Of a DNA stretch of 23,871 nucleotides, positions 1-9,825 are shown in pieces. Position numbers and translations under genes: made by a program. The stretch is taken from UHGV virus genome UHGV-0138833; one strand, given 5' to 3'. Source of the DNA: a virus. Each line of letters opens with the position of its first letter. Positions within the stretch are counted from its first letter, which is position 1. The notes below the pieces were generated by a model. It had not been told where the DNA came from, searched no databases, and saw nothing but the letters and a program-made list of their open reading frames with translations.

Positions 1-60
1 TCAGCGGCTGCGCCGCGCTTCGGGGCGATGTGGCCCCGCTGCTCCCTGGTATTTTCTTTC
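1..60. repeat. GC-rich ~55-bp element, copy A (second copy at 834-893)
   Basis: Hand alignment of 1-55 with 834-893 gives roughly 75-80 percent identity, sharing the core GCGG-TGCGC-GCGCTT-GGGG-ATGTGGC ... CC-GGGTATTT. Confidence 0.45.
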
Positions 61-146
61 GCCCCTTCCATGCCCTGTCGGGCATCACATGAATGTAACT
101 ATATGTATTTGATGGTGTTTTTTTTGAAGAATGGAGGGAAAAATAC

Positions 147-175
147 TTGATAATAGGTCAGTTCTGACCTATTAT
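147..175 (+). promoter_or_regulatory. Putative sigma70 promoter overlapped by a 26-bp palindromic operator
   Basis: -35 TTGATA (147-152), 17-bp spacer, -10 TATTAT (170-175). Perfect inverted repeat ATAATAGGTCAG-TT-CTGACCTATTAT (150-175) spans -35 to -10. Lies about 55 bp upstream of ORF 231-515. Confidence 0.4.
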
Positions 176-230
176 AAACACATCGGGAGGGGATGGTCCC
201 CAACCACCAAAGCCGCTCAGCGGCAGGAGC

Positions 231-515
231 ATGAAAATGCATTTCACAACTTTTCTAAAAAAACATTTCGATATAGAAAAAGTCGTTGGTACTTCTGATT
301 CTGGAAATGATACCGAATCTATTTATGTTTATGAAAAAGGAAATGATTGCGAACCGTTGTTTATTCTGCATGAATCCTGGCTAAATGCAGAAATTAAAAA
401 GTGTGGGGTATGGACTATTGGCAATATATATTCCACATTGGAACACGGAAAAGAATATTCTGAACAGGAACTAATAAAAATGATTAAGGAGGGTAAAGTA
501 ATCAGCAAATATTAA
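231..515 (+). CDS. Hypothetical protein (94 aa, soluble, AT-rich codon usage)
   Basis: Intact ORF with AGGAG 3-4 nt upstream of ATG 231 (alternative ATG at 237). No recognisable motif. Followed by a long hairpin. Confidence 0.55.
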   Translation: MKMHFTTFLKKHFDIEKVVGTSDSGNDTESIYVYEKGNDCEPLFILHESWLNAEIKKCGVWTIGNIYSTLEHGKEYSEQELIKMIKEGKVISKY

Positions 516-522
516 TTTGGGG

Positions 523-555
523 TTGGTAACAGGCTGTGGGGCAGCCTGTTACCAA
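523..555. terminator. Long perfect hairpin (12-14-bp stem), possible bidirectional terminator or RNA processing site
   Basis: GGTAACAGGCTG / CAGCCTGTTACC arms with TGGGG loop. No clean U-tract on either strand, so function is uncertain. Confidence 0.35.
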
Positions 556-584: not shown

Positions 585-719
585 ATGTCAGTATGTGAAA
601 TGATAGAGCTTGCAAACCGCATTGTAAATGGGGAACCTGTAAAAACACCCGCGATAGAAGCATGGATTATTAGCGAAATCATTTGGTGGGCGCATAACCG
701 GGATAATGCTTTAGTTTGA
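585..719 (+). CDS. Small hypothetical protein (44 aa), not in the supplied ORF track
   Basis: ATG 585 preceded by GGAG (573-576) at 8-nt spacing; translation MSVCEMIELANRIVNGEPVKTPAIEAWIISEIIWWAHNRDNALV; ends 10 nt before an intrinsic terminator. Confidence 0.3.
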   Translation: MSVCEMIELANRIVNGEPVKTPAIEAWIISEIIWWAHNRDNALV

Positions 720-728
720 GTCATATAT

Positions 729-759
729 GGGGAGAGTGTCATGCTCTCCCTTTCTTATT
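729..759 (+). terminator. Rho-independent terminator
   Basis: Stem GGGAGAG / CTCTCCC (7 bp), loop TGTCATG, then TTTCTTATT. Confidence 0.55.
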
Positions 760-8161: not shown

Positions 8162-8865
8162 ACACCGCAATTTTTAACGGCAAAGCATCCATGACCAGCG
8201 TTGAGATCGCAGAGCTGGTGGGTAAACGTCATGACAATGTGAAACGCACTATTGAAACATTAGCCAAAGGTGGCGTTGTCCGGTCTCCTCAAATTGAGGT
8301 TTCCGAAAGAATCAATAACTTAGGTTTTAAAGTTCAATATGAGCATTACCTGTTTGAAGGAGAACAAGGTAAGCGCGACAGCATCATTGTCGTCGCACAG
8401 CTCTGTCCTGAATTCACTGCTCGCCTGGTAGATCGCTGGCGCGAACTGGAAGAACAGATCCGTAAGCCAATGAGCGAAATCGAAATGGTTGCCGCGATGG
8501 CTCTTGAAGCCGTTCGCCAACAGAAACGGATCACTCAGGTGGAAGAAAAAGTCAGCCACGTTGCTGAAACAGTCGAGCAAATTAAAAAGGGCACTATTCG
8601 TGAGGGCTATGCCGGATATCGCCAACTGAAAGCAAAAACCGGTTTGTCAGATGATAAATGCCGCAATCTGGTGAACGCCTATCAGATTCCTACAGACACC
8701 CATGAGTTCATGACGCCGGACGGATTGTTGTCACGTCGCGCAATTGTTGCTGTGGAACCGTTTATGGCTGCTTTTTATCGGGTTATGGAGGAAGCAGAAC
8801 CGCGAGGGACTCGCTGGTATCACCCGAAAATGGGGTTATTTCAGGTTATTGGTTGGCAGCGGTGA
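8158..8865 (+). CDS. Rha-family phage regulatory protein / antirepressor-like (235 aa)
   Basis: Strong AGGAGA RBS. N-terminal SVEIAELVGKRHDNVKRTIETL pattern typical of Rha-type regulators (recollection of family signature). Confidence 0.55.
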   Translation: MNTAIFNGKASMTSVEIAELVGKRHDNVKRTIETLAKGGVVRSPQIEVSERINNLGFKVQYEHYLFEGEQGKRDSIIVVAQLCPEFTARLVDRWRELEEQIRKPMSEIEMVAAMALEAVRQQKRITQVEEKVSHVAETVEQIKKGTIREGYAGYRQLKAKTGLSDDKCRNLVNAYQIPTDTHEFMTPDGLLSRRAIVAVEPFMAAFYRVMEEAEPRGTRWYHPKMGLFQVIGWQR

Positions 8866-8889: not shown

Positions 8890-9087
8890 CACTCAACATC
8901 AATAACGGGGAGCTGTTTCGCATAAAACGGCTCCGAAACATCCAAGAACAGTTCTAAAGATATCAGCAGCTATATGATCATTTCAAGACCAAATATTGAT
9001 TCTGCAATTTCGGGACGTTACACTGTCTCTGCACCTTATAAAGCGGGTGCCGGGGGTCGCAGCCCGGAATTGTCAACGGCGATATAT

Positions 9088-9108
9088 GACGCGCCAGCGT
9101 CTTTTTTA
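9088..9108 (+). terminator. Short intrinsic terminator candidate in the leader of the second Rha gene (tR1-like position)
   Basis: Stem GACGC / GCGTC, loop GCCA, followed by TTTTTTA. Confidence 0.35.
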
Positions 9109-9273
9109 TCGTCCGCGCTCACGCACGCCAGAATTATGGTGGGCTGGGCAGGGGAGCCGAAAGGCTCGCCGGTCTCCGTTGACGCCGGTACTGCGAACCC
9201 TGTTCAGTCTGCCACCAGTGAGTTTCGCAGCTCCGGTGGTGGAAGTTTTCCACAGTCAACGGAGGCTGCCATC

Positions 9274-9825
9274 ATGGCTACGATCCCAACCCTCACTCAA
9301 CCTGAAATTGCCATCGTTGATGGTCAGGCTGTTACTTCATCCCTGGCTGTTGCCAACTTCTTCTCCAAGCGTCATGACGATGTACTGAAAAAGATCCGCA
9401 CGCTTGAATGCTCCGCATCATTCACTGCCCGCAATTTTTCGGTGAGTGATTACACCGATTGCACAGGCCGCAAACTACCTTGCTATCAAATCACCCGTGA
9501 TGGCTTCGCGTTCCTTGCTATGGGCTTTACTGGCAAACGTGCAGCCCGGTTCAAAGAGGCATACATCAACGCCTTTAACCTGATGGAGAAGAGTTTATCA
9601 GGTGCCGATGCGTCTGATATGTCAGCTGTCGCACGAAACGCCAGAGGCGTATACCTGCATTTGCGTGAAATCCATCAAATCTGGACAAGCCAGCTTTATC
9701 CAATGCTTAAGGCCGTTGAATCTCCGCTGGCTAGCAAACTGTACGACCGTGTTGGTGATGCTGTTTTTGGCGCTGCACTTGTTGGTTCCAGGCTGAATGG
9801 TTCTGACAAGGAGGTTCGCCCATGA
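9274..9825 (+). CDS. Rha-family phage regulatory protein (about 183 aa)
   Basis: Start taken at MATIPTL (ATG 9274) with GGAGG RBS at 9261-9265. Segment FSKRHDDVLKKIRTL...ARNFSVSDY...YQITRDGFAFLAMGFTGKRAARFKEAYINAFNLME matches the Rha pattern. Confidence 0.65.
   Translation: MATIPTLTQPEIAIVDGQAVTSSLAVANFFSKRHDDVLKKIRTLECSASFTARNFSVSDYTDCTGRKLPCYQITRDGFAFLAMGFTGKRAARFKEAYINAFNLMEKSLSGADASDMSAVARNARGVYLHLREIHQIWTSQLYPMLKAVESPLASKLYDRVGDAVFGAALVGSRLNGSDKEVRP

Follow-up and report, generated by a model that had tools for sequence, protein, structure and literature searches.

The DNA stretch UHGV-0138833, catalogued as a virus genome (23,871 nucleotides; hereafter the window), carries close to its left end, at positions 147-175, a palindrome superimposed on a predicted promoter. 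The comparative analysis undertaken here makes it fairly probable that this palindrome serves as an operator, one of four, for a plasmid-encoded, autoregulated Xre/MqsA-like helix-turn-helix (HTH) repressor, which would shut off a regulon resembling the CUP system of IncN plasmids. An earlier reading of the letters alone (the original prediction) had taken the palindrome for the operator of a dimeric repressor that occludes RNA polymerase. The putative operator now has strong comparative evidence on its side, including a conserved sigma-70-type promoter with a dyad, but the assumption that it is private to the unit downstream has to be given up.

The palindrome and the repeated promoter/leader cassette

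The segment 147-175 reads TTGATA-ATAGGTCAGTTCTGACC-TATTAT, in which a promoter scan identified a -35 hexamer (147-152) and a -10 hexamer (170-175), both on the plus strand, separated by a spacer of 17 bp and matching the consensus at 10 of 12 positions. The description of a perfect 26-bp palindrome spanning the two hexamers at this spacing was borne out with one correction: at 150-175 two perfect 12-nt arms (150-161 and 164-175) enclose a 2-nt centre (ATAATAGGTCAG-TT-CTGACCTATTAT), and since this TT is not self-complementary, "perfect" holds for the arms only. The arms reach 15 nt if one mismatch is allowed (147-161 and 164-178), and the right end of the 26-bp palindrome is the -10 hexamer itself. 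A perfect inverted repeat of this kind (arms ≥12 nt, gap ≤6 nt) appeared in 3 of 200 first-order Markov simulations of the 23.9-kb window.

The best match of the window is NZ_CP124823.1, a 59.4-kb plasmid in which position 1 of the window corresponds to position 9188. Three exact copies of the core AGGTCAGNNCTGACCT and one variant (AGGTCATTTATGACCT) lie within 3 kb of this plasmid, all on the same strand, each about 80 nt 5' of a different gene and three of them just outside the window. Elsewhere in the plasmid, the core has no copy with fewer than three mismatches. The search for the palindrome elsewhere, put forward with the original prediction as a check, was therefore positive for the parent plasmid (four copies), although the window itself holds a single one. 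Moreover, the 8-mer TAGGTCAG was counted six times (three dyads) over 22 kb of the parent plasmid, where 0.32 occurrences were expected, and this count was reached by none of 100 shuffles.

Alignment of the four regions revealed a common cassette extending from about -45 to the start codon. In it an A-tract is followed by TTGATA, the dyad and TATTAT; after these come a ∼50-nt leader, which contains two small hairpins, and an AGGAG placed 6-7 nt before ATG. The A-tract of the window (AAAAATAC, 139-146, plus strand) lies directly 5' of the -35 hexamer, where an A-rich tract is retained in all cassette types; it resembles an UP element and may act as one. Four operons, situated between the replication/partition genes and the origin of transfer (oriT) and all pointing towards oriT, are each headed by such a cassette. 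The fourth cassette drives three genes, the last of which codes for an HTH protein of 83 amino acids (aa). What had been regarded as the operator of one unit thus belongs to a promoter/leader cassette that is present in four copies, together forming a predicted regulon, and in other plasmids, likewise, one of the copies precedes the operon that ends in the HTH gene. The cassette was found in at least 366 PLSDB plasmids, at 1284 places (∼3.5 copies each); no description of it in IncI2, IncX4, IncX3 or pOXA-48 was found in the literature.

Conservation and operator types

Twelve cassettes from IncI2, two IncX4-like plasmids and one IncX6 plasmid were aligned. Invariant in all of them are the TTG of the -35 hexamer (which is also unchanged in every operator type), TAGGTCA, TGACCTATTAT, parts of the leader and AGGAG; the four nucleotides at the centre of the dyad vary and are often asymmetric (GTTC, TTTA, GAAC, TTTC, TAAC, GAAA, TAAA). 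Because only TAGGTCA-N4-TGACCTA, together with the TTG of the -35 and the TATTAT of the -10 hexamer, is invariant in these cassettes, the functional dyad is predicted to be the ∼18 bp at 154-171 (TAGGTCA-GTTC-TGACCTA, type T1 below), which form the conserved part of the palindrome, and not its full 26 bp. The outer left arm ATAA is conserved in the IncI2-type copies only. Half-sites that stay fixed among diverged plasmids around a varying centre are the signature of sequence-specific recognition of two half-sites. The arrangement is that expected of a repressor operator, with invariant half-sites whose centres lie 11 bp apart, a free centre and an overlapped -10 hexamer, and the predicted promoter is of the sigma-70 kind, its near-consensus hexamers and a spacing of 16-18 bp being kept among relatives.

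A wider set of 17 loci on IncI2, IncX3/X4/X6, IncL and other plasmids was drawn from PLSDB matches and from contigs encoding HTH homologues (a scan of genome contigs with the HTH alignment gave only four loci). Over these loci the strict pattern TTGnnn, N16-18, TAWWAT, N38-75, RGGAG, N4-11 and a start codon recovers only the cassettes in question, and the -35 hexamer, the spacing, the -10 hexamer and the leader architecture are kept in all. The -10 hexamer is invariably TATTAT in types T1-T3, and TATAAT in IncX3 and in two of the three cassettes of pOXA-48 (TATTAT before orf19 of the latter). The dyad itself is replaced wholesale, at the same place and in an unchanged promoter frame, by three other palindromes. 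Type T1 (TAGGTC..GACCTA; recognition helix [PA]R[TS]WRRKEEP) is represented by nine loci on five backbones (IncI2, IncX4, IncX6, IncFII-rep and Pantoea), with HTH identity down to 70%; type T2 (ATAATACATCTA-AA-TAGATGTATTAT, ACATC..GATGT; helix LSTWQKKE) by an IncI2 and two Rep_3 plasmids; type T3 (AATACGAC-N6-GTCGTATT, TACGAC..GTCGTA; helix [LI]RTWQKKEE) by IncX4 and an IncFII-rep contig; and type T4 (TACCATCA-N2-TGATGGTA; helix LSAWQAKE) by IncX3 and a Pantoea plasmid. In the plasmids fetched first, the identity to the 83-aa HTH of type T1 was 55% for T2 (an IncI2 plasmid), 63% for T3 (an mcr-1 IncX4 plasmid) and 40% for T4 (IncX3).

Among the loci that have both a cassette and an HTH gene (strict pattern and tblastn), no mismatch between operator type and recognition helix was detected. 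The two to four copies per plasmid are all of one type. A 26-kb Salmonella plasmid, with a single T1 cassette before an operon ending in a T1-type HTH gene, would represent a minimal autoregulated unit. One and the same backbone may carry different pairs (IncI2 with T1 or T2, IncX4 with T1 or T3), and therefore repressor and operator appear to travel together.

The IncL plasmid pOXA-48 provides a further variant. Its HTH homologue Orf20 is a protein of 159 aa with two HTH domains in tandem (42% identity per domain), and three homologous promoter/leader cassettes, among them that of orf19-orf20, are located near 26,980, 28,498 and 32,757 of NZ_CP039953.1. These cassettes share a conserved, non-palindromic spacer (...ATGGCTCATTnGnCGTAT...), and such an asymmetric spacer is what a predicted pseudo-dimer with two different heads would need.

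The candidate repressor

The binding protein, left unnamed by the original prediction, now has a candidate in the 83-aa Xre/MqsA-like HTH (NZ_CP124823.1, 8623-8874), whose gene closes a cassette-driven operon ∼0.5 kb upstream of the window and whose sequence co-varies with the operator type. It matches the Pfam family PF20432 (Xre-like HTH) with 30.2 bits (cutoff 25.8; E = 5.7e-7), and the closest proteins of solved structure are an uncharacterised regulator (PDB 3mlf, E = 0.002), MqsA (3fmy, E = 0.004) and Aca3 (E = 0.013). Membership of the MqsA family itself was rejected, the scores being 23 against 30 bits for PF15731 and 24.8 against 61.8 bits for TIGR03830; only the HTH part (profile 70-126) is matched, and the N-terminal CxxC zinc domain is lacking. 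The variable residues of the recognition helix align with N97 and R101, the base-contacting residues of MqsA. Homologues of the HTH were found in 4191 plasmids. By Pfam and NCBIfam it is the only protein of the conserved block with a recognisable DNA-binding domain, and the other small cassette-driven proteins gave nothing significant in these databases.

Regulators of known systems were considered as well. In BLASTP neither ArdK nor ArdR nor the adjacent 79-aa open reading frame (ORF) of R46 aligned with the HTH, and a search of the whole plasmid for ArdK and ArdR revealed no homologue (best E = 0.34). Nor does the HTH show similarity to KorC, of which the plasmid likewise has no homologue.

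A conserved ORF of ∼86 codons (8373-8633 in locus L001, and present at every related locus) overlaps the start of the HTH gene, giving a toxin-first layout like that of mqsRA; its product has no Pfam hit.

Plasmid context

The notion of a prophage moron, expressed in or from a lysogen, was not upheld. The first 900 bases of the window match 648 Escherichia coli records with an identity of up to 99.8%, 1581 of the 1587 matching places in E. coli are on plasmids, no match was found among 50,697 phage records, and the neighbouring genes code for a relaxase, a type IV secretion system and pil functions. Plasmids related to NZ_CP124823.1 are typed as IncI2, MOBP and conjugative, and the window is a region of an IncI2-type conjugative plasmid adjoining oriT and the relaxase gene. 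The unit under study sits between replication/partition genes on one side and stbB, nikA-like and relaxase genes on the other, with the genes of the type IV secretion system and of a type IV pilus further on. From the position of the relaxase gene, the region would be the leading region, with its plus-strand genes pointing towards oriT; therefore, by analogy with the leading regions of IncF, IncI1 and IncN plasmids, the transferred strand would serve as the template of these genes.

One of the collected records, JAEWTL010000067.1 (locus L010), is labelled as a metagenome-assembled genome of a "Bacillota bacterium"; it is 99% identical to the E. coli IncI2 region and carries three T1 cassettes, the label probably being a binning error.

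Proposed mode of action and alternative explanations

A dimer of the HTH bound to TAGGTCA-N4-TGACCTA would cover the spacer and the -10 hexamer of a promoter predicted to be strong and would exclude RNA polymerase from all four promoters, that of its own operon included (negative autoregulation). In an established donor the cassettes would be nearly silent. On entry into a repressor-free recipient, the plasmid, once double-stranded, would give a burst of cassette expression, until the accumulating repressor shuts it down, a course of events that may be described as zygotic induction or overshoot. What the comparisons above demonstrate is the anatomy of the cassettes, their repetition, their pattern of conservation and the co-variation between operator and HTH types, whereas promoter activity, binding, timing and any toxicity or cost of the cargo are inferred. 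Indirect support for a family that represses something costly comes from pOXA-48, where Orf20 is reported to be essential for plasmid maintenance and its gene could be deleted only with orf20 supplied in trans (PMC12365149). Transconjugants that receive orf20-deleted pOXA-48 elongate and stop dividing, the function and targets of Orf20 being stated as unknown (PMC12365149), and CRISPR interference data agree on Orf20 (PMC12361523).

Several observations weigh against an operator of the HTH that acts during plasmid establishment. Operator and HTH types are partly confounded by linkage, as both reside within one 3-kb region and are co-inherited. The ∼86-aa ORF co-varies equally well and could contribute to specificity or determine it. 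In Pantoea stewartii p4 (locus L012, 5992-6204) a T3-like HTH was found with no cassette within 12 kb. Retention of dyad symmetry through sequence change is expected of a DNA or RNA hairpin too. The leading-region status and the orientation of the transferred strand are deduced from where the relaxase gene lies, and no transcriptome or reporter data for the IncI2/IncX cassettes were found in the literature. The Pantoea locus also contains a T4 HTH beside a T4 cassette.

The first two of these points lead to the alternative that the operator is real but bound by another protein, be it the 86-aa ORF product, another small cassette-driven product or a host transcription factor. The 86-aa ORF is syntenic in all loci and without known domain, and every gene of the block is subject to the linkage confound. 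Yet the HTH alone among these products has a recognisable DNA-binding domain, and the pairing of a tandem-HTH protein and an asymmetric site in pOXA-48 points to the HTH in particular. A host factor is an improbable ligand, since plasmids with the hosts Escherichia, Salmonella and Klebsiella in common have four different dyads in one and the same promoter. Taken as a whole, recognition by some protein other than the HTH is considered unlikely.

According to a second alternative, the palindrome would act as a nucleic-acid hairpin, that is, as a single-stranded DNA promoter, a priming signal or a signal for single-stranded DNA-binding protein, as an RNA hairpin in read-through transcripts or as a minus-strand terminator. 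Folded as single-stranded DNA, the palindrome gives -8.4 kcal/mol (z between about -4.6 and -5.3), a GC-rich element with strong structure is its close upstream neighbour, the dyad persists through the replacement of its sequence from T1 to T4, and the scan calls it terminator-like on the minus strand. However, this hairpin pairs the -35 with the -10 hexamer, so that, unlike Frpo-type elements, it cannot restore a promoter, and a Frpo-type single-stranded promoter was ruled out for the palindrome on this ground. Within a type, moreover, the stem is invariant and shows no compensatory drift, the central bases being free; the pOXA-48 cassettes, which lack the palindrome, fold with only -3.1 kcal/mol (z = -1.65); and no U-run follows the stem on the plus strand. 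An intrinsic terminator on the minus strand was likewise rejected, as the stem has only three GC pairs, no minus-strand gene ends upstream and the supposed T-run is the conserved A-tract 5' of the -35 hexamer. A role as a hairpin seems, on balance, quite improbable.

The least credible alternative, to which we attach very little weight, regards the HTH as the antitoxin of an MqsRA-like pair with the 86-aa ORF, whose toxin-antitoxin operators were spread by cassette duplication and have no role in establishment: Pfam and NCBIfam do place the HTH nearest to Xre-type and MqsA-type antitoxins, the overlapping toxin-first genes resemble mqsRA and loss of Orf20 from pOXA-48 is lethal, but the HTH of only 83 aa lacks the zinc domain of MqsA, the dyad fronts two to four unrelated operons per plasmid, which indicates a regulon and not a single toxin-antitoxin promoter, and deletion of orf19 in pOXA-48 is neutral, so that the toxicity is not due to Orf19 (orf19 does show a depletion of transposon insertions, put down by the authors of PMC12365149 to polarity on orf20). 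Autoregulated repression of the four cassettes by the HTH is accordingly retained as the preferred explanation in what follows.

Leader, downstream unit and upstream repeat

The transcription start of the cassette in the window is predicted near 181-183 (CATCG, plus strand). The predicted 5' leader (181-229, plus strand) folds with -24.7 kcal/mol (z = -3.08) and comprises hairpin 1 at 185-205, with a GGGGA/UCCCC core, hairpin 2 at 212-224 (GCCGC-UCA-GCGGC) and the Shine-Dalgarno sequence AGGAG at 225-229, all on the plus strand. RNAalifold applied to the leaders of all types recovered hairpin 1 only, three of its four pairs being preserved through changes on both sides; inter-type indels misalign hairpin 2, for which the raw sequences were used. 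In other types hairpin 2 is rebuilt with other sequences and always abuts the Shine-Dalgarno sequence. No Rfam family was found for the leader or for the GC-rich element at E <= 1.

The first gene of the downstream unit had been placed at 231-515, but a start at 231 would lie only 1 nt after the Shine-Dalgarno sequence, and the ATG at 237 is the more likely one, its distance of 7 nt being that found in the other cassettes. The resulting ORF of 92 codons (237-515, plus strand) is ccgD-like, sharing 49% amino acid sequence identity (E = 1e-34) with CcgD of R46. It belongs to no Pfam or NCBIfam family; the name "cobalamin biosynthesis protein CbiX" given to it in RefSeq lacks support from hidden Markov models and is probably a propagated mis-annotation. 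The AlphaFold2 model of the protein is confident (pLDDT of 84.6), but a Foldseek search against the PDB returned nothing below E = 0.7. As for the suggestion of a toxic or conditionally expressed moron, there is no direct evidence that the product of 237-515 is toxic.

Between this gene and the next lies a perfect hairpin with 14-nt arms (523-555, plus strand), the longest perfect inverted repeat in the window, which is not followed by a U-run. The 44-aa ORF at 585-719 (plus strand), preceded by its own GGAG, is probably the second gene of the unit, and a terminator-like hairpin with a T-rich tail (729-751, plus strand), detected by the scan, probably marks where transcription of the unit stops. 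In several plasmid records, two hypothetical proteins are annotated across this stretch. Immediately downstream, at 1643-2287, is a hicA/hicB toxin-antitoxin pair whose position is kept in IncX4-like plasmids. Inverted repeats of the form TGTAAAG-N9-11-CTTTACA (789-825, 1390-1426 and 1524-1569) flank the minus-strand ORF 903-1346 and lie upstream of hicA; repeats of this kind also cluster beside a ParA/MipZ-like gene in a related plasmid (locus L006, 3290-3400) and may be partition or regulator sites.

The window begins inside a GC-rich, structured repeat of ∼300 nt, the 3' end of which occupies 1-90 (plus strand). Repeat alignment showed that it precedes three of the four cassettes, the one without it being that of the HTH operon; stretches of the repeat were also noted at 820-900 of the window and at 8950-9290 of locus L001. 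The minus strand of the repeat, which is predicted to be the transferred (T) strand, folds with -100.8 kcal/mol (z = -5.05). Within it, at 64-85, is the block CCTTCCATGCCCTGTCGGGCAT, which is common to the CUP repeats of IncN plasmids and includes the hairpin ATGCCC-TGTC-GGGCAT (70-85); in other plasmids this hairpin covaries to ATCCGC..GCGGAT. By blastn the GC-rich element occurs only in IncI2/IncX4-type plasmids (1253 records, none listed as IncF; no Frpo/ssi sequence of F or IncI1 was compared directly), and it may be a single-strand promoter or priming site of a class other than Frpo.

Implications

Repeated leading-region promoters under repression are not new as a kind, IncN plasmids having provided the example since 1997. 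No description was found in the literature, however, of an Xre-type repressor of such promoters, of operators in their spacers, of switching between specificity types or of a link to Orf20 of pOXA-48. Tentatively, and with somewhat more doubt than belief, we propose that Xre/MqsA-like repressors and their spacer operators constitute interchangeable "immunity types", at least four palindromic and one asymmetric, which control a portable cassette before every early operon of IncI2, IncX3/X4/X6 and IncL (pOXA-48) plasmids, the main carriers of mcr-1, NDM-5 and OXA-48.

If this is true, the essentiality of Orf20 in pOXA-48 would be explained by run-away expression of cassette-driven operons, and plasmids would cross-repress each other's establishment genes on entry if they belong to one type, but not if their types differ. 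The carriers of this repressor family include the IncI2/IncX4 vehicles of mcr-1, the IncX3 vehicles of NDM and the IncL vehicles of OXA-48. A candidate operator and regulon are hereby named for a family in which the targets of the pOXA-48 member could not be named by two studies of 2025, and the residues that set specificity are predicted. Confirmation would extend the 1997 idea of a "CUP regulon" in IncN to several plasmid groups with an unrelated repressor, and blocking of the repressor would become a possible way to destabilise such plasmids.

Comparison with known systems

MqsA is the characterised protein whose HTH matches best, and it too is dimeric and binds a short dyad in its own promoter. 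The half-sites differ, however, in both orientation and sequence, the site of MqsA being ACCT-N3-AGGT. The acr-aca operons offer a parallel in organisation, with an inverted repeat in a strong promoter, small proteins of unknown function and a terminal HTH self-repressor; the similarity of the HTH to Aca proteins is weak (Aca3, E = 0.013, as above; Aca1, E = 0.91) and at the level of the general XRE fold. In contrast to acr-aca, none of the cargo is a known anti-CRISPR and one repressor would serve several operons.

The resemblance to KorC of the IncP plasmid RP4 and of pOXA-48 is one of architecture. There, too, a dyad of 17-18 bp lies between or over the -35 and -10 hexamers of kil/establishment-type promoters and is served by a small autoregulated HTH protein. 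The KorC site of pOXA-48, TAGGACA-AAA-TGTCCTA (locus L009, 7456-7484; PMC12365149), is similar in form and in its half-sites to the T1 operator, with N3 in place of N4, but the two proteins are unrelated in sequence. Orf20 of the same plasmid, like the 83-aa HTH, is placed after a small upstream ORF, and differs from it by its tandem HTH domains and a predicted asymmetric site.

The closest counterpart is the CUP/ArdK system of IncN plasmids, in which each CUP consists of a promoter and an ArdK-binding site before the operons of the leading region, ArdK repressing the CUPs as well as itself (PMC6289460, PMC5371602). In both cases a GC-rich part, a promoter and a leader head several same-oriented operons near oriT, and an autoregulated repressor is present or, here, predicted. 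The CUP of R46 and the window share a 22-nt block (CCTTCCATGCCCTGnCGGGCAT), the layout of -35 hexamer, 17 bp and -10 hexamer, and, compared by eye, the beginning of the leader (CATCGGGAGG); in blastn only the 22-nt block aligns (95% identity). The cargo is related as well, CcgD ("CUP-controlled gene D") of R46/pKM101 having its homologue in the window. The putative ArdK site of R46, judging from the CUP and ardK promoter sequences, appears to overlap and precede the -35 hexamer (CGTACTTGTATTGAC), whereas here the dyad occupies the spacer and the -10 hexamer, and in place of ArdK the repressor would be of the Xre/MqsA-like HTH kind, in which at least four specificity types occur. On these comparisons, the element in the window is best described as a CUP-like cassette with an unrelated repressor, predicted to work in the manner of the CUP/ArdK system while not being a member of it.

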